Source: Candidatus Doudnabacteria bacterium (GTDB taxonomy: Bacteria; Patescibacteriota; Doudnabacteria; UBA920; O2-02-FULL-48-8). Taken from it: a DNA stretch of 64,000 bases. Under the pieces are notes generated by a model that was given only the letters and a program-made list of their open reading frames with translations, did no database searches and was not told the origin of the DNA. Shown here piece after piece: positions 10,132-57,893 of this stretch (within the stretch, counting starts at the first letter, position 1; every line of letters begins with the position of its first letter). The stretch lies in contig JACPFQ010000004.1 in NCBI GenBank assembly GCA_016182875.1, positions 259,515-323,514 on the forward strand, read 5' to 3'. A program made the position numbers and the translations under genes.

Positions 10132-10692
10132 GTGAGTAGAAACTACAAACTACTCACTACGCACTACTCACTATCGATGCTCGCGTATTTTCTAATTTTT
10201 CTCGGAGCGTTTTTGCGAATCTTACCGCATCCGGCTAACTTCGCCCCGATTGCGGCCATTGCCTTGTTTGGCAGCGCTTATCTTAATAAAAAATTGGCGC
10301 TGATTCTGCCGCTTGTGGCCATGATTATCTCCGACTACTTCATCGGATTCGATTCGCTCAGCTCGCGTTTGACTGTTTACGGCACTTTTATTTTGGTCGG
10401 GCTTTTGGGATTCTGGCTGAGGGTCAAAAGAAGCCCGGGCCGGATTGTGGCCGCTTCCCTGGCCGGCTCCCTGATTTTTTATTTAATTACCAACTTCGCT
10501 TTTTTGTACCCTGCCGGTATGTACAGCCATGATTTGAACGGCGTGATGTCATCTTACATTAACGCTCTGCCGTTCTTTAGGAATACTTTGTTAGGCGACT
10601 TGTTTTACGTCAGCTTGTTTTTTGGAATTTATGAATTAGCATCGTACTATGTCAAGAATCATTCGAGTTCACGTTCAAACCCACGCGCATGA
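10132..10692 (+). CDS. small polytopic membrane protein (ECF S-component-like size and topology; possible vitamin transporter)
   Basis: 186 aa, about 5 hydrophobic helices; ends with TGA overlapping the next gene. Confidence 0.4.
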   Translation: MSRNYKLLTTHYSLSMLAYFLIFLGAFLRILPHPANFAPIAAIALFGSAYLNKKLALILPLVAMIISDYFIGFDSLSSRLTVYGTFILVGLLGFWLRVKRSPGRIVAASLAGSLIFYLITNFAFLYPAGMYSHDLNGVMSSYINALPFFRNTLLGDLFYVSLFFGIYELASYYVKNHSSSRSNPRA

Positions 10693-10873
10693 AGATCGGA
10701 TGGAAGAAACCGGCCTGGATGAGTACAAAATTTGGACCACAGCGATTTCGGAAAAGGGTGGGGCCAACCAAGCGGTAATCGAAATCATCGCGGATTTTTT
10801 TGACATCGTGCCCAGCAGCATCCGCATTATTTCCGGCAACAAAAGCCGGCATAAGCTCATCGAAATCCTATAA
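10649..10873 (+). CDS. DUF167 (YggU) family protein
   Basis: 74 aa; GGANQAVIEIIADFFDIVPSSIRIISGNKSRHKLIEI matches the GkANkaLikfLak...SGetSR.K family signature. Confidence 0.6.
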   Translation: MSRIIRVHVQTHAHEDRMEETGLDEYKIWTTAISEKGGANQAVIEIIADFFDIVPSSIRIISGNKSRHKLIEIL

Positions 10874-11030
10874 CCGTTCTCCCGTTCGCTCCCGTTTTTT
10901 ATCTAAAACTGAAATGCTGGTACATGAATTGCACGGCCGCGTAATTCATGTACTGGCATCGATGGAACATAAATATTGCGATCGCAAGAATTATGTTCCT
11001 CTAGTTGCGGCAAAAAATTTGGCTATTGTA

Positions 11031-11064
11031 GGTACCTAAAAAAGCCATGGCTAATTTAGGTGCC
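11031..11064. repeat. 34-bp palindrome ggtacctaaaaaagccatggctaatttaggtgcc (copy 1)
   Basis: Near-identical perfect palindrome at 33437-33470 (GGTACC...GCCATGGC...GGTACC). Confidence 0.6.
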
Positions 11065-11155
11065 TCAATGGATAAAAAATCCTGTCAGCGGTGACGTTTA
11101 GACAGTGCAAATGCAACGCTACCAATCGTCAAGCGCTTTGTGTTAAAATTACTTT

Positions 11156-12391
11156 ATGTCCGAAACTCAATTGCTAAAAGGCTTTCGCGATTATCTGCCG
11201 CAGGAGCAGATGGCGCGGAAGAAAATAATTTCCAAAATCTCGGAAGTGTTCGAGCGTTTTGGGTTTGCCCCGGTCGACACTCCGGCCTTGGAATACTACA
11301 AACTTTTGGGCGGCAAATACGGCACTGAGGGTGAAAAGCTCATGTATAAATTCAAAGACCAGGGGGGACGCATGGTGGCGCTTCGTTATGACCTCACCGT
11401 GCCTTTGAGCCGAGTGCTGCTCAATTATCCCAATCTTCCCAAGCCGTTCAAGCGCTACCAAATCGCCCCGGTTTGGCGCGCGGAGAATCCTCAGAAAGGG
11501 CGCTTCCGCGAATTTGTGCAATGCGACGCAGACATCGTCGGCTCTGATTCCTTGATTGCCGACGCGGAAGTGGTCGCGACTTTTGCCGCCGCGTTCAAGA
11601 ATTTGGAAATTGGGGAAGTTGTGGTCAAGTTCAATGACCGCAGACTGATTGATCAAGTTTTGGACAAGCTTAAGGTTTCAACGGCAAAGCGGGTGAATTT
11701 TTTGAGAATCCTCGATAAGCTTGAGAAAATCGGCAAAAAGGAAACTTTGCAGAGCTTGAAGAAGGCAGGCTTTAAGCCAGACCTTTTGACTGAATATGAA
11801 AGCCAGATGAAATCAGCCGGCCTGGACTTTGTGGAACAGTTCGAAAATTTACTGGGAAGCTTTGGAGTGGGCAATATAAAATTTGACCCTTATTTGGCGC
11901 GCGGCTTGGATTATTATACCGGTACGATTTTTGAATTCATTTTGAAAAATAAACCCGAGTTTGGTTCAATCGCGGGAGGAGGGCGCTACGATAATTTGAT
12001 TAAAGACAATAAAGGCCAAGCCCTGCCCGCAGTCGGCTGTTCCATCGGCTTAGATAGGATGCTTTCGGCCTTGGAAGAAATGGGAGTGATTGCTCCGCAG
12101 ACCGCGGCGGAAGTGATTGTGTTTAATCTGGACGCAAGCCTTACTGCCGACTATTTGAATATTGCGACCAATCTGCGCTCAGCCGGCTTGGATTGCGAAT
12201 TTTATTATAAACCGGACAAGCTTGATAAACAATTCAAATATGCGGAAGCAAAAAATATCCAGGTTGCGGTGATTTACGGCCCCAATGAAGCAAAAGCGCG
12301 GAAGGTCAACGTGAAAAATTTAACGGAAAAAAAACAAGTTTCTGTTGACCTAGATGACTTAGTCACGGAAATCAAAAGCATGCTTTGGTAG
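11156..12391 (+). CDS. hisS: histidine--tRNA ligase
   Basis: 411 aa; class II aaRS HisRS motifs (RDYLPQE, ALRYDLTVP, GGGRYDNL). Confidence 0.9.
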   Translation: MSETQLLKGFRDYLPQEQMARKKIISKISEVFERFGFAPVDTPALEYYKLLGGKYGTEGEKLMYKFKDQGGRMVALRYDLTVPLSRVLLNYPNLPKPFKRYQIAPVWRAENPQKGRFREFVQCDADIVGSDSLIADAEVVATFAAAFKNLEIGEVVVKFNDRRLIDQVLDKLKVSTAKRVNFLRILDKLEKIGKKETLQSLKKAGFKPDLLTEYESQMKSAGLDFVEQFENLLGSFGVGNIKFDPYLARGLDYYTGTIFEFILKNKPEFGSIAGGGRYDNLIKDNKGQALPAVGCSIGLDRMLSALEEMGVIAPQTAAEVIVFNLDASLTADYLNIATNLRSAGLDCEFYYKPDKLDKQFKYAEAKNIQVAVIYGPNEAKARKVNVKNLTEKKQVSVDLDDLVTEIKSMLW

Positions 12392-17593: not shown

Positions 17594-18511
17594 ATGCCAG
17601 AATTGCCAGAAGTCGAAACCATTGTTCGAGAGCTTAGACCTAAGCTTCGAAACAAAAAAATCAAAGACATCCGCGTCTTGCTGCCAAAAATGGTGGCGCT
17701 GGGGCCGGCGACTTTACCGAATCTTCGAAACACTTCTGGATTAGTGGCAGTTAAATTTGCCAAGACGTTAAAAGGTTTGAAGGTTACAAATGTTAAAAGG
17801 CGCGCGAAGCTTATCATTATCGACTTGGCGGGTAAATATTCTATTTTGGTTCATCTGAAAATGACTGGTCAACTAATTTTTTTAGATAAAAAGCATCTTA
17901 ACAAGCAGATAAGGCTTTTAAACATTCCAACTTTAAAACCTTCTAACCTCCCGGCCAAATCTACGCACGTCATTTTTGATTTCACGGACGGCTCTAGGCT
18001 TTTTTACAATGACTTTCGGCGGTTTGGGTACTTGAAGCTAGTTACTGATCAAGAACTGCCGCACGTCAGGGAATTGCAGGAATACGGTCCTGAGCCGCTT
18101 GACATAAATTTCACGACCGGTAAATTTATGTCAATTGTGAATAAACGACCGAAAGCAAAAATCAAACAATTTTTAATGGATCCAAAAAATATTGCCGGAA
18201 TCGGAAATATTTATTCCGACGAGATTTTGTATTATGCCAAGCTCAGGCCAAATCGGAGAGTGAACAGCCTGACGACGCAGGAGAAAAAAAAGTTATACTT
18301 AGGTATAGCAAAAATCTTGGGCGATGCCGTAGTGCATTACGGTTCATCGGTCGGAGACTTCGTCCGGCCTAGCGGCGATTGGGGGACCTACGGCTTTTTG
18401 CATAAAGTCTATGGCCGGGCAGGAGAAAAATGCAAAGTTTGTGGTAGTATAATAAAGAGCATTAAGTTCAACGGCAGGACGGGAAGTTTCTGTCCTGTTT
18501 GCCAGAAATAG
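17594..18511 (+). CDS. mutM: formamidopyrimidine-DNA glycosylase (Fpg/Nei family)
   Basis: 305 aa; MPELPEVE N-terminus, H2TH region and C-terminal zinc finger CKVCGS...CPVCQ. Confidence 0.85.
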   Translation: MPELPEVETIVRELRPKLRNKKIKDIRVLLPKMVALGPATLPNLRNTSGLVAVKFAKTLKGLKVTNVKRRAKLIIIDLAGKYSILVHLKMTGQLIFLDKKHLNKQIRLLNIPTLKPSNLPAKSTHVIFDFTDGSRLFYNDFRRFGYLKLVTDQELPHVRELQEYGPEPLDINFTTGKFMSIVNKRPKAKIKQFLMDPKNIAGIGNIYSDEILYYAKLRPNRRVNSLTTQEKKKLYLGIAKILGDAVVHYGSSVGDFVRPSGDWGTYGFLHKVYGRAGEKCKVCGSIIKSIKFNGRTGSFCPVCQK

Positions 18512-23345: not shown

Positions 23346-23481
23346 TTGACAGCGCCGGCAAAAAGGTATATACTTTTGAGTTCTTTTTAAAATCGCATAT
23401 TATGCCAATTTCGTAACAGGACCGAAGTTTGGCGTTAAAAATTATACAAAAACAGCTCCTGTATTACGAGCTGTTTTTGTT
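23346..23481 (+). ncRNA. candidate small RNA unit (promoter TTGACA-17-TATACT to intrinsic terminator, about 100 nt transcript)
   Basis: ttgaca at 23346, tatact at 23369; hairpin acagctc ctgtattac gagctgt plus T-run at 23452-23481; no ORF longer than 5 codons. Confidence 0.25.
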
Positions 23482-34753: not shown

Positions 34754-34834
34754 ATTAAAAGCCTAAAGCACAAGATATACTAGCAAAATACCTAGCCTTT
34801 TTCAATCCCGCACCAGATACTGGTGCGGGATTGC

Positions 34835-38773: not shown

Positions 38774-38841
38774 TCTGAATCTAGCTTGAAGAGCTAATCG
38801 GGTTATTATCCGCCTTCGCTGAAAAGCTTCGGCGGACAGGC

Positions 38842-38875
38842 AAAGCCCCCGCAATTTGCGGGGGCTTTGGTTTGG
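38842..38875 (+). terminator. rho-independent terminator
   Basis: aaagcccccgc aattt gcgggggcttt followed by ggtttgg. Confidence 0.6.
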
Positions 38876-39419: not shown

Positions 39420-39717
39420 CCCCCTCTAACTCCCCCTTGTTCCAAGGGGGAGGATCCCAATTCTTTTCGGGCATTAGTAAATCCCCTCCAATTGCTTGAT
39501 TTCGCTGGAAGTTTTACTATATCCTTACTTAACTTATACTTAGCATTGATATAGCATTTATTTTAGTGTCATCCTGAAACAAGTTTTTGGGATCTCGCTT
39601 AGTTACTGAAAAACCCCCGCCGAAAGGCGGGGGTTTTGTTTGTTGACAGGCTGAATCATTTAATTTATCATAAGTACGAAAGTTATACTTTCTAACTAAA
39701 TTGATTTAGGGAAACTC

Positions 39718-45980: not shown

Positions 45981-46002
45981 GCCAGATAACACGTAACAAA
46001 AT

Positions 46003-46036
46003 AAAGCGGCTCTATTTGGGAGCCGCTTTATTTTGA
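46003..46036 (+). terminator. rho-independent terminator
   Basis: aaagcggctc tatttgg gagccgcttt followed by attttg. Confidence 0.6.
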
Positions 46037-46881: not shown

Positions 46882-49800
46882 ATGAATACAAATATGCTTT
46901 ACGTGCGGTTTGAAAAAGTCGTTTACTGGTTTTTAATAGTGGCCATCGCCATCTGGGCATTTGGCCCGGCGGCACTCCTGCCGTTCGCGCAAGCGATCGT
47001 CACCACCACCATCACGGATCTGACCCCGCAATTCGGCGGGCAGCGGCTAAAAGCTTCCAGCAACCCGACCGCGGTGCTCAAAGTCCAGTTCGGCTCGGAC
47101 TCCAACGGCGAAACTTTGACTTCTATCAAGGTCACATTTGCCTCGGTTACCGGTTGTACCGGTTGCTGGACTTCCGGCGCGGCCACTTCTTCCGAACTTG
47201 CCGATCTGGCAGCCGCGGCTGATGGCGCAGGCGGCATCCAGCTTTGGAAAGACGCGGGTGCCGCGGGATTCCAGGGAACAGGCGTTGATACGCAAGTCGC
47301 TTTGACCGCCACCCCGCAGTACGCTTCGGCCACGACTTTTATCCTCAATCCGGCTGTTGATCCGACATTGACGACTGATGATATTTATTTCGTTGTTTTG
47401 AAAACCAAGTCTGCACCCACTAACAATAATGCTTTTACTATTGGCGTGGCCGCTGACGGCGACATTGTCACCTCGGCCAACAACCCAATCATCACGCCGG
47501 TGACCAGCCGGACGATCACAGTTGATACTGCGGCTCCGACTTTGACTGCGGCCATGAGTAATCCTTTGACTGCCGCGACCGGAGTGCCGATCAGCACCAC
47601 CCCGCACATGACTTTCTCGGAAGGCGTGGACCAAACGACTCTAATCCCTGCCAACATCACCCTAACTGCTGGCAGTGCCGTAAATGGTGCCATCCGCGCA
47701 TTTCCTGATGGATTTGATTTTATCGTTTCCAGCGCCCCTACTTATACGGCCAGCACCAGTTTTACCAAACTTAGCATTGTCTCTACCGCTTTCTTCCAAA
47801 TCGCAGGAACTAACCCCATAAGTCCGCAGGGAACTTATACCGCACCGGTGGTTGGCGACATTGTCATGACCCAGAGAGAAACTTTTCCAGCAGAGCTGGG
47901 ACTGGTCACGGATGCCACTTTGACTTCCGGCACTTTTGCCGTCAATGGGTTTGCAGGGTTTGCGCCGATGCAGATCACCAAAATAGCCACTCCTGCTGCC
48001 ACCGGCGCGGTGAGCGCTTCGACAACAGTTAATGTGGGTGACATCATAGTGGTTAATACTACTGCCAATCCTACTGATAGCCGCTACAATTGGCACATGG
48101 TCACCACAGGCGTGTCCGCAGCGGCCTTAAACGGCGGCGCATTAAGACTGGACGGCAATGGATCCGCCCCAACTTTTGCTGCCAGTTCCAGCTTCTCAAC
48201 CATCGCCCCGGCCGGCACAGCAACTGACAATGGCGCCACCAATGGCGGAAAGCTGGCAGTCGTGGTTGGCGACTTGGTATTTGTAAAAATCGGGGCAGGT
48301 TCTTATAGCTGGCATCAAGTGACTACTGCTGGCGATCTTTCCTCTGACGCCACGGAAAACACGGCGTTTATAGACGATGGCGCGGCTGATCCCGGAATTG
48401 CCGCTAGCAGTCAAATGAGCAAGATTGCAACTGCTGCCAACGGGGCGGTAACTGACACTGCAACTGTCTTTGCTTATGGAGACTTGGTGTTTGCCCAGAC
48501 CACAGCCAATGCCGCCAATAACAATGCTTATAACTTTCACATTGTGACTAATGGCGCTACCGGAGCAAACTCTACCAGCCTGCGATTCGACAACGCTCCA
48601 GGCAGCTTGGCGACTTCCACTGCCCACACCTTGACTATGACCACTGGGATTAAAGATTTAGCCGGAAACGCTTTGGCTACAAACCAAGTCATTACCTTTA
48701 CTACGGGCGGCACCGGCGGGACCAACACCACGCCGCCATTTGTCCAATCCTCCCAGCCGCAGTCCGGCAGCCAAACCCATGCCATTGGCGCGCCCATCAG
48801 GCTGACGTTTAGCGTGGACATGGCTGCAAGCGGCGGCGGGTCAATTCTTGCTGATGCCAACATAGGTTTGTTTACCGATGTCAACGGCGCTCCTGGAGTC
48901 GCTGTGACTACTACCAAAGCTTATGACTCGGCTTCCAGAACAGTCACCCTGACTCCTGCAACGCTGACTGCTGCAACCGGGTATGTGGCCAGGGTCAATA
49001 CCACTGCCACTTCCACTACGGGAACTGCTTTAAACAGTCCGAGTACGCAGCCTTATTTCTTATTCTTCAAGACCGCTTCCGGGGCCGCTGATACCGCGGC
49101 ACCAACCGTGCAAGGGGTCTCTCCGGCCACTGGCTCAACCGGGGTTAGCATGAGCACGGTCATTAGCGCGGGATTCAGCGAAGACATTGATCCTTCGACT
49201 GTCTCCACAACTACCGTGACGCTTGCCAAAACTACGCCCCTGACTGCGATTACCGGCAATGTCAGCTACAATTCGGCCAGCAGATCCGTTAACTTTACCC
49301 CTTCAACAGTGCTTGAAGCCACCACCGGCTATACCTTTACCATTGTCGGCGGAGCAAGCGGGATTAATGATTTGTCGGGCAATGATTTGGCCGCAAACTT
49401 TACTTCAACTTTCACGACCACTGGCACAGCCGACAATGTCCTGCCGAAAGTCTCATTTGCCGCGGCTGACGACTTTGGCGTAGCCATAACCTTTAACGAA
49501 ACCATGAAAACCGGCGGCGGGCCTAATGCTGCGGACAACATTGTCAACTACAGCTTGCAAAGCCCGACTGGCTCTTCCATTTCTTTAGGCGGCAAAACCG
49601 TGACTTATGATTCCGCCACCAAAACCGCGCGCATCTCAGGACTTAGTTTGCAAAACGGCAATACCTTTAAAGTTACGGTCAATGCTCCCACCCAGGATTT
49701 GGCTGGCAATGGCATGGATACTACTGGCACGCCGGCTAACAACACGGCTTTTGGCACGGTCCAAAATTCCACCACCACGGGAGGAAACTTGGGCCCTGGC

Positions 49801-52800
49801 TCAGGCACGATTAACTTTAGCCAGCAGGGCATGAACCCAACCAGGGTGACTCCCATGAACCGGGCGGCGGGAGCGACCAGCAATTACAAAGCGGAGTTTT
49901 TGGCCGCGACCTCTGTGCCTTCGGGCGGCAAGATTGTCCTGACTTTCCCAGCCGGCTTTACCGTAACCAATGCCGCGGCAGTGGCCGCAGCGAGTAGCTT
50001 CTGCAACGCTGATTTAAACGGGCCAGGCATTGGCGCTGTCACCATCGCCGGTTCTCTTGCCAACGATAACGCGGCCGGAACCATCACCATCACCACCGGC
50101 GGAGATGCCACAGGCGCCAATGCTTTCTTGTGCCTGGAGCTTTCCGGGATTGTCAACTCCACGGTTCCCAACACTGCCGGCTACACCGTTGACATCAAAA
50201 CCCGCGATACCGCGGCCAACAACCTCGCAATCTTGGAAACCAAAACTGCCTCGCCGTTCTTTTTGGGACAAACCGGTTCCCGCACACTCACTGTTAACGT
50301 CTTCAACGACAACGGCGCGGGAGTCGGCGGGGTAGCCAATGACAACATCAAAAATGGATCAGAAGCCGCGATTGCCAATGCCAAAGTCTTCTTGTTCTCG
50401 CCGTCCGTGGGAGGACAAGCAGGCACCACTGACGTCAATGGCCAAACGACATTCACCAGTTTGGCAGACGGCGAATATATGATCGGCCTTGAGCCGGCCT
50501 CGGTGGGCGGCGGCGGGTTTGCGCTTAATTCCGCGCCCCAGCCGTTTACTCTCTCAGCTTCCAGCTTAACCAAAAACTTCGGCTTGCGCGCAGCCCCCTA
50601 TACAATTTCCGGCACTGTGGCGGGACCTAACGGCACAATTGTAGATGTGTTTGCTTCCTCACCTAATGGTTTTACCAAGACCACCATAACTCTCTTGGGC
50701 TTAGGCACGCCTGTTGCCTATTCTTTGCCGGCGCAGGACTTGACCACTTACAACGTGGGCGTAGGCCCAACCATGCCGGAAGCGTCTCTGCGGCCCGGAG
50801 CCCCGCCGCCGCCGCCGCCGACAGCCACTGATAAGACCATTGCCGGCACCGTGGTTGATTCATCCGGCGGCGGAATTTCCAATGCCGGCGTGTTCTGCCG
50901 GCCTTCGGAAAGCTCTACCGGCACTTCTTCCGGCTTTGGCACGGGTGGCATGACCAACACTTCCGGCGCCTTTACGCTTAATGTTACTACCGGAGTTTAC
51001 CTTTGCGGAGTGTTCAAACCCGGCATGCCGCCGGCTCCGGAAAAGCAAATCACGGTGGGCGCTGCCGCTAATACCCCAACTAGCCTGGCCTTTATCATTG
51101 ACGTGGCGACCACGCTGACAATTTCCGGAACTATCAAAGATGACAGCGGCAACGCCATCCCGTATGCCGGAGTCAGCGGCCGCAAAGTTGTTTCCACCAC
51201 CAATACCACGCCAGTCGGCGGCGATTCCAGCAACTTTGCCGGCGGCCCGACAGACGCCAATGGCGCTTACACCCTCTATGTGACAACCGGCACCTGGGTG
51301 GTGGAAGCCTTCGCTCCCGGCTTTGGCAGATTGGGAACCAAGACAATCACGGTCGCTGCGTCAAGCTTAAGCGGCCAGGACTTTTCTGCTCAAACCTTAA
51401 GTATCGGCACGATTACCGGTTCTGCTACCAGGGATAGCAGTCCGGTGCAGGGAGTCATGGTGCGGGCAGAAAGTAGTAGCGGCGGCAATATGGGAGTGAC
51501 AGATGCTGCTGGGGCTTATACAGTTAAAGTTCCGGCCGGCACTTACACCATCACTTGTTTCTTCCCGGGAGTCGGCGAAAGCACTCCCATCACGGGAGTT
51601 GTCGTGACATCAGGAAATACCACCGCCGCGGGAGCTTGCGCGCTGGCTGCCCCGATTACTATTACCGTCAACGTCACTGACGGCACCAATCCGATTACCA
51701 ATGCCGGCGTCGAGGTGCGCGATCCTGTCACAGGACGCGGCAACTTTAGTTCGACTTCTACCACTTCAGGCGTGAACGCTGTTTATACCGTGGTCGTGCC
51801 TCCTGGCACCTACAATGTGCGCGCCGGGCATCCAGCCTACGGCAGCGTGGGCCAAACCGCCAATGTCAGCACAACGCAAACTATTACTTACAATGTCGGC
51901 AGCTCCAAACAATTATACGCGGTGACCGGCACAGTCACGGGAGACGCAGTGGCCCTAAGCGGCGCCTGGGTGTCATTAAACGGCACTCCCACCGGGGCCA
52001 CGAACACTGTTTTCTTGGGCGCCCAGACCATTGCCAATGGCACATTCACCATCAATGTCCCGCCAGGAGCTTACAGGATTAGGGCGGACAAGCCGGGTTA
52101 TAAATCGCCGGCAGAAACCGCAGTCACCGTCACTGGTGCCGCAGTGACTGCCGGAACCATTGCCTTAACCACAGCCGCTCGGACCATTGCCGGAACAGTG
52201 ACTTTGGACAGCGCTGGCATTTCCAACGCATTTGTGGATGCTACAGATGGCAATGGCGGTTATGCGGTGGCTCAAACCAATGCCTCAGGCGCTTATACCT
52301 TGAACGTTGACAACGGTACTTGGACGATTAGAGCGCACAGCCAAGGCTATGAAGGTGGTCCCTTGCCAGTGACGGTCAGCGGGGCCAATGTCACTGGCCA
52401 AACTATTACGCTTTCAGCTATTTCAGGCTTTACCATTACAGCTGAACGGCCCGAGACCGTGACCCCGACTGCCGGAGGATTTATCGGCAACACCGACATT
52501 GGCACGCACTTCCAATTGGAAATTCCGGCAAACGCGCTAGGCACTGGTTCCAATGCAGCAACCGTGACGACCAAAGTCAACACAGCCATGCCCAACCCGC
52601 CAACCGGAACGATCCTAAACAAGAATGCAGTGACGATTGATGCCGTGGATGCTTCGGGCCAGCCCATCTCAAGCTTGAATGATGAGATCACGATTACGAT
52701 TCCTTATACGCAAGCTGATTTGCCAGCCGGCACTTCCGAAGAATCATTGGTTATCGGTGTTTGGAATGACGCCACGCAAACTTATGATACGCTTTCAACG

Positions 52801-54015
52801 ACGGTTGACACGACCCTAGATACTCTAACCGCCACAGTTTCTCACTTGTCAGACTTCGCGCCGTTAGTTTCATCCGGCGGCTCTCCGCCAGCTACTCCGA
52901 CCAATCTGGCGGCCAGCAATACCGGCGATGGCGCCTCGGTCAGGCTGACTTGGACTGAAGTCTCGGGAGCTACCAGCTACAACATCTACCGCTCCACTGA
53001 CAATTCGACTTTCCCACTGCTGGCCAATACCGCCCAGACCACCGGAGCTTATAATGCCACCAGCTTAACCAACGGGACGACCTACTACTTCAAGATTAGC
53101 GCGCAGAACTCAACGGGAGATGAATCAGCCGCCACTTCTGCGGTAACAATCACTGTCGCTGCAAGCGGCGGAGGCGGTGGTGGAGGCGGCGGCGGAAGTG
53201 CTGCTCCGGTAAGCCCAACCCCGACTCCCACGCCAACACCTACTCCGATCCCAACGCCCACTCCAACACCGAGTCCGAGTCCGACTCCGACTCCCGCTCC
53301 CAGCGGAGCGCACTCAAATGGAACATTAGTCAACGACAATGGAACAATCTATCTGATTAAGAGCGGCAAACGAATCGGGTTTAGGAACGAAGCTGAGTAT
53401 AAATCTCACGGATATAATTTCGGCCAGGCAGTAGCCGCGAATGCTCAGGATAAAACCCTTCCACAAGCGGAATTTGTCCAAAAAGCTTTGGAAGGAACCT
53501 TGGTGCTTGATGCTGCTGACAACAAGACCATCTACATGATTGGCTCAAATGGCACCAAGCGCGGGTTTACGTCTGAATCGGTGTTCAAAGGCTTGGGATA
53601 TAACTTCAAAGACATTCCCAAGATCAATCTGTCGGATTATCCGCCAGGGCCCCCTGTTGCTGATTCAGCGCTTACTCACCCTGATGGCGCCTTGGTCCTG
53701 GACGGCAAAACTGTCTGGTGGATTCGAGGCAATACCCGCCAGGGCTTCGAGTCCGAAGCGGTGTTCAACACTTATGGCTTCAAGTTTTCCAACGTCACTA
53801 AAGTCAACCCAGCCGACAAGGCTTTAGTCGAAGGCCCGCTCGTCAAGTTCCGTGACGGGACCCTGGTCAAAGACGGAGCCGATTACTACCTGATTTCCGA
53901 CGGCAAGAAGCTCAAGTTTGCTTCCACTGCCGACTTGACTGCCAAGGGCTATAAATCATCTAACGCGATTAGCGGCTCATTGGGCAGTTACGAGTCAGGC
54001 GGCGGTGTGCAGTAA
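46882..54015 (+). CDS. giant S-layer-like surface protein (2377 aa): signal peptide, Big_5/SbsA-Ig-like, CarboxypepD_reg-like and fibronectin type III domains, PT linker, four C-terminal 45-aa modules
   Basis: DTAAPT... Ig-like repeats; repeated GTY.I.A..PG(Y/F) modules; [34 protein letters not shown] Fn3 motif; C-terminus paralogous to ORF 44307. Confidence 0.75.
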
Positions 54016-54035
54016 ATAAAACAAAAAGTTCCCCC

Positions 54036-54067
54036 AAAAAACCCGTTTTTCAAAAAGCGGGTTTTTT
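54036..54067 (+). terminator. rho-independent terminator
   Basis: aaaaaacccg tttttcaaaaa gcgggtttttt. Confidence 0.55.
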
Positions 54068-54087
54068 GATAATCTGTTCCATATACA

Positions 54088-54120
54088 TTGACATAAAAAC
54101 ATCGGTCGCTATAATTATGT
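54088..54120 (+). promoter_or_regulatory. promoter/operator module copy 1 (TTGACA-16-TATAAT inside acataaaaacatcggtcgctataattatgt)
   Basis: Identical 30-bp module repeated at 54672-54701; ends in the inverted repeat ACATAA...TTATGT. Confidence 0.55.
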
Positions 54121-54121
54121 C

Positions 54122-54667
54122 ATGAGAATTAAAGGCTCTGAGATTTTAAAATATGTTTTGCTGGGCATTGGATTAACCGGATTGGTGCTCGTTGCCATTA
54201 CTGCGCCTAATCTTTTTTCGGCATTAGGGCAATTTACCGGCCGCAAAGGTTACAGAAAACAGCAGATCCGGCGCGCGTTTGACTACGCCAGAAAAAGCCA
54301 GATGATAGAAATCAAAAAAACTCCAAGCGGCTACGCGGTCATGCTTACGGAAAAGGGCAAGGAAAGAATGGCTAAATTTCGTTTGGGCGAGCTTGAGCTT
54401 GCTAAACCCAAAAAGTGGGACGGCAAATGGCGCGTTGTTATTTTCGACATTCCGGAAAGGTATAAATTGAGTCGCCTGGTTTTCGCCAAGAAACTTAAAG
54501 AGCTTGGATTGGCCCAAATGCAGAAAAGCGTCTGGGTTTGGCCTTATGATCTGCAAGACGAAATAGATCTGATGAAGGAAGCTTATGAAATCAGGCCATT
54601 TGTCCGCCTGATTTTGGCTCAAAACATCGACCGGCAGACAGACTTGCTTAAATTTTTTAATTTATAG
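54122..54667 (+). CDS. membrane-anchored PaaX-like transcriptional regulator (wHTH plus PaaX_C-like domain)
   Basis: 181 aa; N-terminal TM; KWDGKWRVVIFDIPERYKLSRLVFAKKLKELGLAQMQKSVWVWP matches the PaaX C-terminal signature. Confidence 0.5.
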   Translation: MRIKGSEILKYVLLGIGLTGLVLVAITAPNLFSALGQFTGRKGYRKQQIRRAFDYARKSQMIEIKKTPSGYAVMLTEKGKERMAKFRLGELELAKPKKWDGKWRVVIFDIPERYKLSRLVFAKKLKELGLAQMQKSVWVWPYDLQDEIDLMKEAYEIRPFVRLILAQNIDRQTDLLKFFNL

Positions 54668-54668
54668 C

Positions 54669-54701
54669 TTAACATAAAAACATCGGTCGCTATAATTATG
54701 T
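54669..54701 (+). promoter_or_regulatory. promoter/operator module copy 2 (TTAACA-16-TATAAT) upstream of pilB
   Basis: aacataaaaacatcggtcgctataattatgtt, 30/30 identical to the copy-1 core. Confidence 0.55.
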
Positions 54702-54818
54702 TAAATTGTCAGAGGAGCCTGCTTCTCTTATAAAGTAGGCTTTATGGTATAATAAGGACGACCTTTTGATTATTTCAGAAACAAACCTAGTGCAATTTAT
54801 TAAATTTCTACTACCCTG

Positions 54819-56567
54819 ATGGCTTTAAACGAGCAGGATTTAAAACGTGCTTTGGTTTCAAAAAAAATCCTCAGTGCAAAAAGCTGGGACGAGCAGTTAG
54901 CTGAGGCTAAAACCAAAAGACAGGATATCGGCCAGCTTCTGATCGACAAGAAGCTGGTGGAAGAAGAACAACTGGCGCAAATCACCGCTCAGTTTTTTGA
55001 TGTTGAATACGTCGACCTCAAACAGCTTGAACAGATTCCTAAAGAAGTCCTGCTTTTGGTTCCGGAGCCGATTGCCCGGCGGCATCAGGTGGTAGCGTTT
55101 GGAAAGGAAAAGGACAAGCTAAACCTGGCCATGATTGACCCCAATGACCTGGAGACCAGGGATGCCATTAAGAAAAAGACGGACTTGGTAGTTTTGCCTT
55201 TTTTGATTTCCAAAAGCTCTTTGGACTGGGGGCTCAAGCAGTACCACACCTCGCTTGAAGCTGAATTTGCCAAAATAGTTTCGCAGCCTTCGAAGGAAGG
55301 CGAACATGAACCGGAGGCGGTCACGGCCAAACTCAAGGAAATGGCTCAAGAGATCCCGGTGGTCCGCGTCGTCGATACGCTCTTGGAGTATGCGATTTTG
55401 GAGAAAGCCTCGGACATCCATATCGAGCCTCATGAGAAAGACTTAATCGTGCGATACAGAATCGACGGCGTGCTCCATGAAGTCATGACCTTGCCCAAGG
55501 TCATCCAGCCGGCGCTTGTGGCGCGGATTAAAGTTATCGCCGACTTGAAAATCGACGAACATCGACTGCCGCAGGACGGCCGCTTCAAAGTGGAAAAGGA
55601 AGATTATAAAATTTCGATTCGGGTCTCGACCATTCCCGTGTTCGACGGCGAAAAGGTCGTCATGCGCCTGCTTGATGAATCAGCCCGCGCCATGACCCTT
55701 GAAGAGCTCGGGTTTATCCATCGCAATTACGATACGATACTGCGAAACGTCAAAAAACCGCACGGCGCCCTGTTTGTCACCGGCCCTACCGGAAGCGGCA
55801 AATCGACCACGCTTTATACCATTATTTCCATGCTCAACACCAAAGGCGTCAATATTTCCACGATTGAAGAGCCGATCGAGTATCACATCCCGGGTGTCAA
55901 TCAAATGCAGGTTAATCCCAAGATCGGGTTGACTTTCGCCACTGGTTTAAGGGCGCTTTTGAGGCAGGACCCGAACATCATTATGATTGGCGAGGTCAGA
56001 GACCGAGAAACCGCGGAGGAAGCCGTGCACGCGGCTTTGACCGGACACATAGTTTTGGCCACGCTTCACACCAATAATGCTTCCGGAGCATTGCCCAGGC
56101 TTCTCGACATCGGCGTAGAACCATACTTGATTGCCTCCACCATCAACGCCGTGGTCGGGCAAAGGCTGACCAGGCAAATATGCCAGGATTGCAAAGTCGA
56201 GGTCCATATCGATGAAAAATTCGAGGAAAGTTTGCGAAAGGAATACAATCTCGAGCATTTATTGGGGGTCATGAAGCGCGAGGGTTTTATCGAAAAAAAT
56301 ATAAAAAATCTGAGGGAGGTTACTTTTTACAAAGGCCAGGGGTGCGACAAGTGCGGCCATACGGGCTACAGGACCCGCAAGGGTATTTATGAAGTTTTGG
56401 AAGTAACCGCGGAAATCCAGGACTTGATTTTGAAACACGCTCCGACTTCCCAGATCCAGGAAAAAGCCGTGGAACAGGGGATGATTTTGATGTGGGAGGA
56501 CGGATTTATCAAATGCGCGCAGGGCCAAACCACCATTGAGGAGATTTTGAGGGTGAGTAAAGAATAA
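54819..56567 (+). CDS. pilB: type IV pilus assembly ATPase PilB (GspE family)
   Basis: 582 aa; N-terminal GSPII_E domain; Walker A GPTGSGKST; Asp box; His box; C-terminal CDKCGHTGY zinc motif. Confidence 0.9.
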   Translation: MALNEQDLKRALVSKKILSAKSWDEQLAEAKTKRQDIGQLLIDKKLVEEEQLAQITAQFFDVEYVDLKQLEQIPKEVLLLVPEPIARRHQVVAFGKEKDKLNLAMIDPNDLETRDAIKKKTDLVVLPFLISKSSLDWGLKQYHTSLEAEFAKIVSQPSKEGEHEPEAVTAKLKEMAQEIPVVRVVDTLLEYAILEKASDIHIEPHEKDLIVRYRIDGVLHEVMTLPKVIQPALVARIKVIADLKIDEHRLPQDGRFKVEKEDYKISIRVSTIPVFDGEKVVMRLLDESARAMTLEELGFIHRNYDTILRNVKKPHGALFVTGPTGSGKSTTLYTIISMLNTKGVNISTIEEPIEYHIPGVNQMQVNPKIGLTFATGLRALLRQDPNIIMIGEVRDRETAEEAVHAALTGHIVLATLHTNNASGALPRLLDIGVEPYLIASTINAVVGQRLTRQICQDCKVEVHIDEKFEESLRKEYNLEHLLGVMKREGFIEKNIKNLREVTFYKGQGCDKCGHTGYRTRKGIYEVLEVTAEIQDLILKHAPTSQIQEKAVEQGMILMWEDGFIKCAQGQTTIEEILRVSKE

Positions 56568-56657
56568 TGCAAAAATCAAAGCTCAAAAATCAAAATGTAA
56601 TTAAAAATGCAAAGAGAATAATTTTTAATTTTGCTTTGTCATTTTGCATTTTGACTT

Positions 56658-57893
56658 TTGCATTTTGAATTTTTAAATATGCCTGAATTTTCATATATCG
56701 CAAGATCCAAAACCGGGAGCCTGGAACAGGATGTCATGACGGCCGTTTCCGAACGGGCTGTGGCCGACGCCTTGAGAGCCAAAGGATTGATGCCGACGTC
56801 CATCAAAGCTCTAAGAAAAAGCTTTGATTTGGAAATTTTAAAAGGATTTCTGACCCCGATCAGGCTGATCGAAAAAATAACCTTCATCAAAAATTTGTCC
56901 GTGATGCTTAAAGCCGGCTTGCCCGCGGCCAAAAGCCTCAAGATTTTATCAACGCAGACTACCAACCAAAAATTTGTCAAAGTCATTTCCGATTTGGCCA
57001 AAGCCGTGGAAGCCGGCACATCTTTGGCGGACGCCATGGGCAAGCACCCCGGAGTGTTTTCTCCAATTTTTGTCAGCATGGTCCGCGCTGGTGAAATCTC
57101 GGGCAATCTGGAAAAGAATCTCCTTTATTTGTCCGAACAAATGCAGCGGGACTACGACTTAATTTCCAAGGCCCGCGGCGCCTTGACTTACCCAATCGTG
57201 GTTTTAATCGCTTTGGGCATCGTCGGCTTCCTTATGTTCACCTTTGTCCTGCCCAAGCTGACCGATACTTTTAAAGACTTGAACGTTCCACTGCCGCTCA
57301 TGACCAGAGTCGTGATGGCGGTTGTGGACTTATTCGCGAAATATGGAATCTTCATCATTTTCCTCCTGATTTTATGCTTTTTTGGATTTATGTATTGGCG
57401 CAAGAGCGAAGGCGGGAAGAAAGTCATTCACATGGCGGTGTTTTATGTTCCCATTGGCAGCGGGATAGTCAAAAAAATCAACCTGGCCAGGTTTGTGCGC
57501 ACTTTTTCTTCGCTTATGAAAAGCGGCATGCCGATTGTGGAAGCGCTGGAAGTATCCTCCCATGTCGTCGGCAATATTTATTACCAAAAAGTGATTGCCG
57601 AGGCCGCGGCCAAAGTAAAAGTCGGCTCGCCGCTGGCCGCAAGCTTCAAAAAGCAGCCTAAATTGTTTCCGAATCTGGTGGTGGAAATGATGGAGGTCGG
57701 CGAGGAATCGGGCACGACGGATGAAGTCCTTTCTGAGGTTGCCGCGTTTTATGAATCCGAAGTCGACCAGACCATGAAAAATTTATCCTCGATTTTGGAA
57801 CCGGTTATTATGATGGTCATTGGAGCCGTGGTCGGGTTGCTGGCGGTGGCTCTGGTAACGCCGATTTATAACATTACGCAAAGCATAGGATGA
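56658..57893 (+). CDS. pilC: type IV pilus inner-membrane platform protein PilC (GspF family); probable start MPEFSY at 56679
   Basis: 411 aa; two GspF repeats (AGLPAAKSLKIL..., SGMPIVEALEV...). Confidence 0.85.
   Translation: MHFEFLNMPEFSYIARSKTGSLEQDVMTAVSERAVADALRAKGLMPTSIKALRKSFDLEILKGFLTPIRLIEKITFIKNLSVMLKAGLPAAKSLKILSTQTTNQKFVKVISDLAKAVEAGTSLADAMGKHPGVFSPIFVSMVRAGEISGNLEKNLLYLSEQMQRDYDLISKARGALTYPIVVLIALGIVGFLMFTFVLPKLTDTFKDLNVPLPLMTRVVMAVVDLFAKYGIFIIFLLILCFFGFMYWRKSEGGKKVIHMAVFYVPIGSGIVKKINLARFVRTFSSLMKSGMPIVEALEVSSHVVGNIYYQKVIAEAAAKVKVGSPLAASFKKQPKLFPNLVVEMMEVGEESGTTDEVLSEVAAFYESEVDQTMKNLSSILEPVIMMVIGAVVGLLAVALVTPIYNITQSIG

Follow-up and report, generated by a model that had tools for sequence, protein, structure and literature searches.

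A PaaX-like protein gene of Candidatus Doudnabacteria bracketed by two copies of a palindromic module, a candidate self-bracketing autorepressor of a large protein family

We analyzed a 64-kb stretch (64,000 nt; hereafter the window) of contig JACPFQ010000004.1 from a Candidatus Doudnabacteria metagenome-assembled genome (MAG; GCA_016182875.1), focusing on a gene for a 181-aa protein that combines a winged helix-turn-helix (wHTH) with a Cas2-like domain of the PaaX type. An identical 30-nt module is present on both sides of this gene; the second copy precedes pilB, the first gene of a type IV pilus cluster. A preliminary description, made from the sequence of the window, interpreted this layout as autoregulation combined with co-regulation of the pilus genes by a membrane-tethered regulator. 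Our main finding is that the flanking pair goes with the protein family and not with the pilus operon; the locus looks like a self-control (or selfish-DNA) device rather than a pilus switch. The interpretation that we favor, with a probability of roughly 0.55, is a PaaX-type autorepressor with one operator embedded in its promoter and a second operator at the 3′ end of its gene.

The exact protein is annotated as HYV13_03270 in the MAG of this ultra-small groundwater bacterium; a 65%-identical paralog, HYV13_03650, is encoded in the same MAG.

A promoter module on both sides of the gene

The window contains exactly two copies of the 30-mer ACATAAAAACATCGGTCGCTATAATTATGT (54091-54120 and 54672-54701). 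No further copy was found in the 64 kb at up to three mismatches, and 100 shuffles gave zero; the identical module before the regulator and before pilB is thus as described earlier, with a chance expectation of none. The ungapped match widens to 39 nt with 92% identity (54082-54120 versus 54663-54701). The features of the locus are as follows.

54035..54068 (no strand): terminator-like palindrome CAAAAAACCCGTTTTT/AAAAGCGGGTTTTTTG, an inverted repeat with 16-nt arms, 94% complementary, 3′ of the gene for a 2377-aa surface protein and thus between that gene and the regulator cassette; one of the long palindromes of the window
54082..54120, + strand: module copy 1, dyad TGACATAA...CGGTCG...TTATGTCA fused to the regulator promoter (repeat and promoter match; transcription is predicted to start right at the ATG, 54122)
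54122..54667, + strand: gene for the 181-aa wHTH/PaaX_M protein (Pfam, AlphaFold2, Foldseek, hhalign)
54663..54701, + strand: module copy 2, with 30 nt 100% identical to copy 1, −35 weakened and −10 kept; candidate second operator
54745..54753, + strand: extended −10-like TGGTATAAT, read from the sequence between copy 2 and pilB, 66 nt 5′ of pilB; candidate module-independent pilB promoter
54819..56567, + strand: gene for a pilB-type ATPase, first of the type IV pilus cluster (T2SSE 2e-125, MshEN)

Copy 1 contains the promoter TTGACA-16-TATAAT, a 12/12 match to the sigma-70 consensus (−35 at 54088-54093, −10 at 54110-54115); copy 2 reads TTAACA-16-TATAAT and matches at 11 of 12 positions. The claim of −35 and −10 hexamers at near-ideal spacing therefore holds for both copies, with spacers of 16 bp. 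The ATG of the regulator gene (54122) is located 7 nt past the −10 of copy 1, where space for a leader or a Shine-Dalgarno sequence is absent; hence the regulator mRNA would be leaderless. Copy 2 overlaps the stop codon (TAG 54665-54667) and is located 117 nt 5′ of the pilB ATG (54819).

The inverted repeat ACATAA/TTATGT reported for the module ends is present as well and widens to TGACATAA/TTATGTCA in copy 1, although the inner arms pair poorly and only the outer 8-9 bp are paired. The module is thus a weak palindrome in the window (DNA-hairpin folding gave −4.0 and −3.7 kcal/mol, z −1.7 and −2.1). Dyad symmetry in a nearly perfect promoter that overlaps the start of the regulator's own gene is what autoregulation would lead one to expect; to this extent, and by analogy, the proposed autoregulation stands.

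A truncated PaaX-like protein with Cas2 signatures

The sole significant Pfam domain of the 181-aa protein is PaaX_M (PF20803; residues 97-172; E 4.6e-21; 75.2 bits versus a cut-off of 24), the central, Cas2-like domain of PaaX. The PaaX_C domain named in the preliminary description was not recovered: the hidden Markov model (HMM) check gave no Pfam match to PaaX_C, and the protein stops nine residues past the middle domain. No match to the Pfam PaaX N-terminal domain was found at E ≤ 0.1. The full-length PaaX family TIGR02277 was matched weakly (27.6 bits versus a cut-off of 264.55; E 2e-6). Matches to Cas2 families remained below cut-offs (PF09827, 18 versus 23.8 bits; TIGR01573, 19 versus 24.5), and the best Cas2 model of PADLOC gave 5e-5.

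The AlphaFold2 model, built with an alignment of 107 homologs, has a mean pLDDT (predicted local distance difference test) of 84. In a Foldseek search, the best match in the Protein Data Bank (PDB) was E. coli PaaX (8a39; E 4e-7), followed by Rv0674 and then by Cas2 and winged-helix proteins. With hhalign, residues 43-157 were placed on residues 51-162 of E. coli PaaX (recognition helix, wing and middle domain) at a probability of 91%; the alignment ends at residue 162 of the 316 in PaaX. Together with the PaaX_M and weak TIGR02277 matches, these results support a PaaX-like protein with a wHTH, its recognition helix and wing at residues ∼44-76 followed by the Cas2-like domain at 97-172. The same order of parts is found in PaaX of E. 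coli and Pseudomonas, the phenylacetyl-CoA-responsive repressor; PaaX, however, has 316 aa with the ligand-binding PaaX_C domain, whereas the window protein has 181 aa and lacks it.

The similarity to Cas2 and VapD includes the ferredoxin-like fold and the stretch vviFDIp..R..L..LkeLGf.qlQkSvW, which aligns with Cas2 SSO8090. Asp109, invariant in the 107 sequences, is aligned with the Asp of the β1 YDV motif of SSO8090, i.e. with the metal-binding Asp position of Cas2. The QKS (QxS) motif is kept in the family as well, while E. coli PaaX has Glu at the position of Asp109 and no such motif; judged by these alignments, the family retains Cas2-like signatures more closely than PaaX does. Differences from Cas2 and VapD are the scores below family cut-offs, the fusion to a wHTH and the genomic setting: no CRISPR array was seen among the tandem repeats of the window and no cas1-like gene among the neighbors, and the repeats, 581 bp apart, enclose a gene rather than spacers.

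A hydrophobic, uncharged stretch at residues ∼11-40 (with an uncharged run of ∼25 aa) is conserved throughout the family. Its maximal Kyte-Doolittle hydropathy over 19 residues (KD19) is 2.29 in the window protein, compared with a median of 1.71 for the family, in which 73 of 107 members score 1.6 or higher; the equivalent region of E. coli PaaX has a maximum of only 0.99. Residues ahead of the stretch carry a net charge of +1.7 and those behind it +5.4. Hydropathy and charge fit a membrane anchor of N-out/C-in orientation, which is plausible but not established. AlphaFold2 folds residues 5-38 as the α1-β1-α2 part of a wHTH (pLDDT 56-76), with the conserved Gly20 and Pro29 at the borders of secondary-structure elements. 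The α1-α2 region of the wHTH is either replaced by the hydrophobic segment or has diverged into it. Because the segment occupies the position of helices α1-α2, the tethering claimed earlier is unproven: hydropathy suggests it, while the low-confidence wHTH fold of the same residues argues for caution. A predicted single hydrophobic segment and a winged-helix DNA-binding domain share one polypeptide in ToxR, CadC and TcpP as well. The window protein differs from these in that the segment is N-terminal to the DNA-binding domain and directly adjoins it, and in that an extracytoplasmic sensor domain is absent; across the family only ∼10-40 residues precede the segment.

The family is large. A profile search of 1.84 billion representatives gave 6392 clusters (at 50% identity) at E ≤ 1e-3 and 3910 at E ≤ 1e-10; among the matches listed, nearly all were 180-240 aa long. 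A scan of GTDB genomes confirmed 301 family loci; of these, 80 loci of distant relatives were kept for analysis (loci are labeled by L numbers). Nearly all of the 80 come from Patescibacteria-type MAGs. Three loci (L029, L050 and L052) come from MAGs labeled Deltaproteobacteria, Bdellovibrionales and Gammaproteobacteria; given the other loci, they may be mis-binned Patescibacteria DNA. A defense-system or phage origin was considered and rejected: PADLOC gave weak Cas2 and LmuC matches, PHROGs gave nothing significant and no relatives were found on viral contigs.

A full-text literature search did not find a paper pairing PaaX with Patescibacteria or with Cas2-like proteins, and among the ‘PaaX-like’ papers found, no title or abstract was on Patescibacteria or on this family. 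The fold and the probable mode of action (a PaaX-like autorepressor) are of an already known kind. The following appear undescribed: the shortened domain architecture, the hydrophobic N-terminal segment, the Cas2 motifs that the family retains, and the universal bracketing of the gene by its own co-evolving palindrome.

The bracket is a hallmark of the family

The module is found on both sides of the gene in every close relative, i.e. in relatives with 88, 83, 76, 70 and 60% identity and in the 65% paralog. Its conservation, named in the preliminary description as a check on the idea, was thus observed in orthologs and the paralog alike. For the wider set of loci, we determined the best ungapped match between the regions upstream and downstream of the gene in each locus and compared it with a cross-locus control; upstream distances were counted from the start of the tblastn match rather than from the true start codon. 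In narrow flanking regions, the match passed the 99th percentile of the control at 59 of 84 loci; in wider ones it did so at 67 of 81, and at 75 of 81 it passed the 95th. A flanking pair was detected for 52 of 75 family genes; of 232 other genes from these loci, as called by a crude open reading frame (ORF) picker, only 2 had one. Given the cross-locus and other-gene controls, the flanking repeats cannot be put down to chance or to a general similarity of intergenic regions.

The bracketing unit is a palindrome of 30-50 bp whose arms are different in each lineage and in each paralog; paralogs within one MAG carry different palindromes (e.g. L019/L023, L061/L063 and L021/L091). The centers of the two copies are 579-817 bp apart (median 656), and the center of the downstream copy has a median position of +37 nt from the stop codon. 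Upstream copies match the −10 consensus TATAAT better than downstream copies (4.53/6 versus 3.63/6, p = 2e-4), with a match of at least 5/6 in 30 of 57 upstream and 15 of 57 downstream copies; thus, the upstream copy is the promoter-embedded one. In the Doudnabacteria clade, upstream copies keep TTGACA...TA(T/A)AAT with the ATG directly after it, while downstream copies have a degraded −35 (TTAACA, TAACAC, TAATAT or ATACAT) and a variable −10. A promoter-capable downstream copy, as in the window, is a minority state. The direct orientation of the copies gave the better match in 26 pairs and the inverted orientation in 11, with 20 equal, in a test biased by the way in which pairs were found; a fixed direct or inverted orientation was rejected.

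In the 60% relative, GTCATGAGA at the promoter/start junction is duplicated (L111:231-291), creating a 6-codon mini-ORF at the predicted +1, ahead of the real start.

Symmetry is kept at the DNA level

The central hexamers of the palindromes are mostly CATATG, CCATGG, CGATCG, CTATAG or CTATCG; core and flanks together read GC-N-(A/T)(A/T)-N'-GC, e.g. GCCATGGC, GCGATCGC, GCTATAGC and GCATATGC. Protein pairs whose sites have the same core are 50.5% identical, versus 39.3% for other pairs (0 of 1000 permutations as extreme); the central core tracks the protein clade. Core hexamers coincide with sites of type II restriction enzymes (CCATGG, CATATG, CGATCG, CTGCAG, CAATTG and TCATGA), which may have to do with restriction or methylation or just with a tetraloop clamped by GC pairs.

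We compared mirrored positions of both copies at 57 loci, with palindrome centers picked so as to maximize pairing. Both sides differ at 135 position pairs, versus 55 expected. In 58 of these 135 pairs the double change is fully compensated, with both copies staying paired; the mean in 2000 permutations was 8.5 and the maximum 19. G/C changes are involved in 38 of the 58 compensated cases. The central 8 bp are nearly constant between copies, and positions 5-8 from the center are the most variable. Compensated changes could also be produced by template-switch correction of quasi-palindromes, in which case no selection would be needed.

One interpretation of such symmetry is at the level of RNA: the downstream palindrome would be a terminator or a stabilizing 3′ hairpin and the upstream one the terminator of the preceding gene. 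Downstream copies do start close to the stop codon, within a few to some tens of nt, several of the orphan copies described below lie 14-25 nt past the 3′ end of a gene, and many copies form strong hairpins of −9 to −13 kcal/mol. However, T-tracts are not enriched after downstream copies (4.09 versus 3.96 T in 12 nt), and mismatches on the sense strand show no bias toward G-T wobble (G/T 26 and 28, A/C 27 and 22). The absence of both signals indicates that the symmetry acts on DNA and not on RNA. Besides, copy 1 in the window is located 5′ of its own transcription start, and the upstream gene already has a terminator hairpin at 54035-54068. The private sequence common to both hairpins of one gene would be left unexplained, and an Rfam scan of 53900-54900 gave sub-threshold noise alone, with no known RNA element. 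A role as RNA elements is therefore highly improbable, and for the downstream copy an intrinsic terminator or RNA hairpin was ruled out by the T-tail and wobble tests.

Further palindromes in the window and elsewhere

At up to two mismatches the frame ACATAA-N18-TTATGT has five matches in the window, all of them (5/5) with a CGNNCG center. In addition to the two module copies, the following features are of this class.

18099..18134, − strand: orphan site TTGACATAAATTT..CGACCG..AAATTTATGTCAA in the Fpg/MutM ORF 17594-18511; hairpin z −6.7
10920..11065 (no strand): tandem cluster of three palindromes (10920-10953, 10964-10999 and 11030-11065) with cores CGGCCG, GCGATCGC and GCCATGGC; z −4.4 to −6.5

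The reverse complement of 18099-18134 has the two outer arms of the module and a CCGGTCG core (26 of 35 positions identical), with perfect arms of 13 bp (14 with one mismatch). The site is inside the region for the H2TH domain and adds no length to the protein, according to Pfam. Its resemblance to the module makes a third binding site of the regulator probable. On the + strand this stretch reads TTGACA-16-TAAATT and could be an internal promoter.

The cluster is located between a DUF167 gene (10649-10873) and hisS (11156-12391). Its three palindromes are 34-36 bp long, and the first two have the frame ACAT(A/G)A-N18-T(T/C)ATGT. The cluster resembles a bacterial interspersed mosaic element (BIME), or an operator array for several paralogs encoded elsewhere in the genome. 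A paralog within the window as the explanation of the orphan sites was ruled out: tblastn and the family HMM, run on all six frames, found just one family gene.

Scanning metagenomes for ACATAA-N6-CGGTCGC-N5-TTATGT gave 13 loci, only three of which have a family gene nearby. In most matches the unspecified positions are palindromic as well; some matches lie 14-25 nt past the 3′ end of a gene and some between convergent genes. Among family loci of 8.5 kb, third or fourth copies are present in 4-5 of 76, and extra copies with the arms and core of the flanking pair were found in L021, L056, L072 and L074. Strong palindromes, such as copy 1 of the 70% ortholog and the orphan sites of the window, fold at −9 to −13 kcal/mol (z −4 to −8).

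In total, the window has 17 long palindromes, versus ∼1 in shuffles. About half of them are hairpins of the classical terminator type, in which A/T runs flank a GC-rich stem at either end (e.g. 23446-23480, 34803-34833, 38841-38869, 39610-39637 and 45997-46035). The genome uses intrinsic, often bidirectional terminators, which are distinct from the operator-class palindromes.

Autorepression and structured DNA

We propose that the module would be the private, dyad-symmetric DNA site of the adjacent PaaX-like protein, with the Cas2-like domain serving dimerization. The outer half-site of copy 1 contains the −35 and the right arm the −10, with the start codon at the predicted +1; a dimer bound there would occlude RNA polymerase and repress its own gene, as E. 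coli PaaX does at Px. PaaX binds TGATTC-N27-GAATCA and autorepresses Px by steric hindrance (PMC9493321). Own-promoter repression by occlusion is established for PaaX; for the window protein we infer it, together with DNA binding. We count in favor of this interpretation the similar geometry of the two sites, both long dyads with outer half-sites of 6 bp (ACATAA-N18-TTATGT in the window). Further points in its favor are the exact repeat and the leaderless promoter layout, which recurs in relatives, the PaaX-like fold, the flanking pairs seen for family genes but hardly for other genes, the cores that follow protein clade, the better −10 of upstream copies and the CGNNCG center of all five framed sites.

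Copy 2 would be a second operator, whose most likely role would be to tighten or insulate autoregulation: the two sites, ∼580-820 bp apart, could be joined by looping, or the site could act as a roadblock to transcription that leaves or enters the gene. Looping repressors acting at lac O1/O2, gal OE/OI and deo likewise have an operator at the promoter and a second similar or identical one hundreds of bp away, with a site symmetry that implies a dimeric repressor. In the window, however, the putative second operator lies past the 3′ end of the repressor gene, and the regulator gene itself is enclosed. Further sites of the same class, such as 18099-18134, would be extra targets. In this genome and its closest relatives the near-consensus −10 of copy 2 may also give regulator-controlled transcription of pilB, which would be a lineage add-on and not the reason for the second copy.

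Several points weigh against the autorepressor. A simple model of a dimer on its operator does not predict the mirrored co-variation (58 compensated changes versus 8.5 expected), which points to hairpin or cruciform potential or to the template-switch correction mentioned above. Some orphan sites are inside ORFs or between convergent genes, which is unusual for promoter operators. The invariant Cas2 Asp, Glu in PaaX, could mean catalysis and not dimerization alone. If the N-terminus is truly transmembrane, it would leave the wHTH without its first helix and against the membrane. Finally, the module of the window itself is only a weak palindrome.

The main rival interpretation is a system akin to that of repetitive extragenic palindromes (REPs) and RAYT proteins. 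In RAYT systems the gene invariably has a cognate palindrome on either side, the downstream REP often directly adjoining the stop codon; palindromy survives through complementary mutations, and protein trees are congruent with REP trees (PMC2817692). By analogy, the palindromes of the window family would be structured DNA (hairpin or cruciform) maintained, copied or processed by the flanked protein. The Cas2-like domain with Asp109 would be a structure-specific nuclease or binder, gene and palindromes a domesticated or selfish unit, and orphan palindromes dispersed or relic copies. All of these features recur in the family: both flanks carry a cognate palindrome, the downstream one near the stop codon (median center +37 nt); complementary mutations preserve the palindromy, and proteins and palindromes co-vary. 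Also shared are several cognate pairs per genome and extra intergenic palindromes, sometimes clustered, as in the BIME-resembling cluster at 10920-11065. Orphans with the same arms and core occur in the four 8.5-kb loci named above, and 10 of the 13 metagenome loci have no family gene nearby. The diverse housekeeping-gene contexts and the Cas2-like motifs, kept closer than in PaaX, agree with this interpretation as well.

Other observations speak against it. Instead of the HUH/Y1 transposase of RAYT systems the family has a wHTH and a Cas2-like fold, and Pfam detects no HUH/Tyr transposase domain or known recombinase fold. Copy number is apparently low (two exact and three related sites in 64 kb), with the two flanking copies alone at up to three mismatches. 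Paralogs within a genome are old (∼65% identical), which does not indicate recent mobility, and viral contigs yielded no homologs. The orientation of the copies is mixed and the upstream copy doubles as a promoter; upstream copies are systematically adapted into promoters, which fits regulation. In PaaX, Cas2-like domains serve dimerization, and template-switch repair could make compensated changes without selection. Hosts differ too, Proteobacteria for REP/RAYT and Patescibacteria for the window family. On balance we consider a REP/RAYT-like system rather unlikely. Its broadest form is similarly doubtful: a Patescibacteria-specific class in which each of thousands of wHTH/Cas2-like proteins would recognize or process its own 30-50 bp hairpin or cruciform palindrome, two of which would always enclose the gene, and further copies would be seeded around the genome, a REP/RAYT analog on a Cas2-like fold, possibly acting at the membrane.

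Neighboring genes and the type IV pilus

In the window, pilB is followed by pilC, pseudopilins, pilM and pilN, reaching ∼62 kb. A tandem repeat, ATTTTGAATTTTGC x 3.9 (56621-56673), lies in the short spacer between pilB and pilC, overlapping the TTG annotated as the start of pilC.

Should control of the pilus be the primary function, copy 2 would exist to co-regulate the type IV pilus operon with the regulator gene. Copy 2 is indeed an 11/12 promoter aimed at pilB with no intervening terminator. The order giant surface protein - regulator - pilB - pilC is kept in the 70% ortholog (L007), a distant member (L072) has pilB directly after the second palindrome, and in the 76% and 83% relatives the cassette adjoins a homolog of the giant surface protein. 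Still, at least 90% of family loci have a second copy, regardless of which gene adjoins it. Adjacency to pilB is limited to the clade of the window (L007/L016) and, independently, L072 (3 of ∼84 loci); in L059 pilB is ∼3 kb away on the opposite strand. An association of the family as a whole with pili was rejected, as pilB/pilC are near the gene only in these loci.

Downstream neighbors represent 108 Pfam families, none of them in more than 3 of 80 loci, and include tRNA synthetases, RecA, an aldolase and FtsJ; by crude ORF calls, the downstream gene is convergent in 23 of 80 loci. The paralog in the same MAG (P0007) is bracketed likewise with no pilus genes adjoining. After copy 2, the 76% and 83% relatives have a gene homologous to the N-terminal part of the giant surface protein rather than pilB. 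Within the clade the −35 of downstream copies is systematically degraded. Copy 2 of L007 lacks a −10 (CTGTTTTTATGT) and is ∼500 bp from pilB, which has its own TTGACA-17-TATAAT promoter there; in the window pilB has a candidate extended −10 of its own. Pilus control as the primary function is thus improbable. Control of pilB by the regulator is plausible in this genome as a lineage-specific trait, and the co-regulation of pilus genes proposed earlier stands to that extent; in at least 90% of the family copy 2 lies beside unrelated genes.

The ∼500 bp between the second palindrome and pilB in L007 (L007:6580-7070) are absent from the window; they may hold a degraded minus-strand ORF, possibly the remnant of a mobile element. 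Among the 80 downstream neighbors are genes for DNA uptake and recombination (pilB, ComEC-type Competence, DprA, RecA and two PIF1 helicases) and for five aminoacyl-tRNA synthetases; the orphan cluster of the window likewise precedes hisS. All of these counts are small and exceed expectation weakly at most.

The 2377-aa surface protein (46882-54015) has a run of 11 Gly and a PT-rich linker, and its ortholog has domains of the Big_5, fn3 and CarboxypepD_reg types. The gene is 5′ of the regulator in the window, while its N-terminal homolog is 3′ of the regulator in the 76-83% relatives; a 46% Doudnabacteria relative has, downstream of the regulator, a 903-aa protein sharing the C-terminal region of the surface protein. 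Homologous stretches are located at L013:1562-2257, L014:832-1995 and L017:4797-7508. Within the clade, the cassette thus remains beside large surface-protein genes as their order changes. The setting also separates the family from PaaX: the neighbors in the window are the surface protein and type IV pilus genes, with no paa genes nearby, the family was confined in our survey to Patescibacteria-type MAGs, and its gene is bracketed by two sites.

Significance

Patescibacteria (Candidate Phyla Radiation) account for a large part of bacterial diversity, and type IV pili are central to their episymbiotic lifestyle. To our knowledge, almost nothing is known about gene regulation in this group. The locus exposes a very large protein family with a private DNA site that can be read on both sides of the gene. 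If the proteins are autoregulators, the bracket provides a protein-DNA recognition code for uncultured organisms, with hundreds of natural protein/site pairs, and, as a case open to testing, a gene that its own product insulates. Should the palindromes function as structured DNA, a REP/RAYT-like partnership would have been invented independently a second time, and a domain closer to Cas2 in its motifs than that of PaaX would have a role outside CRISPR. On either interpretation, the link to the type IV pilus is now directly testable in this lineage.

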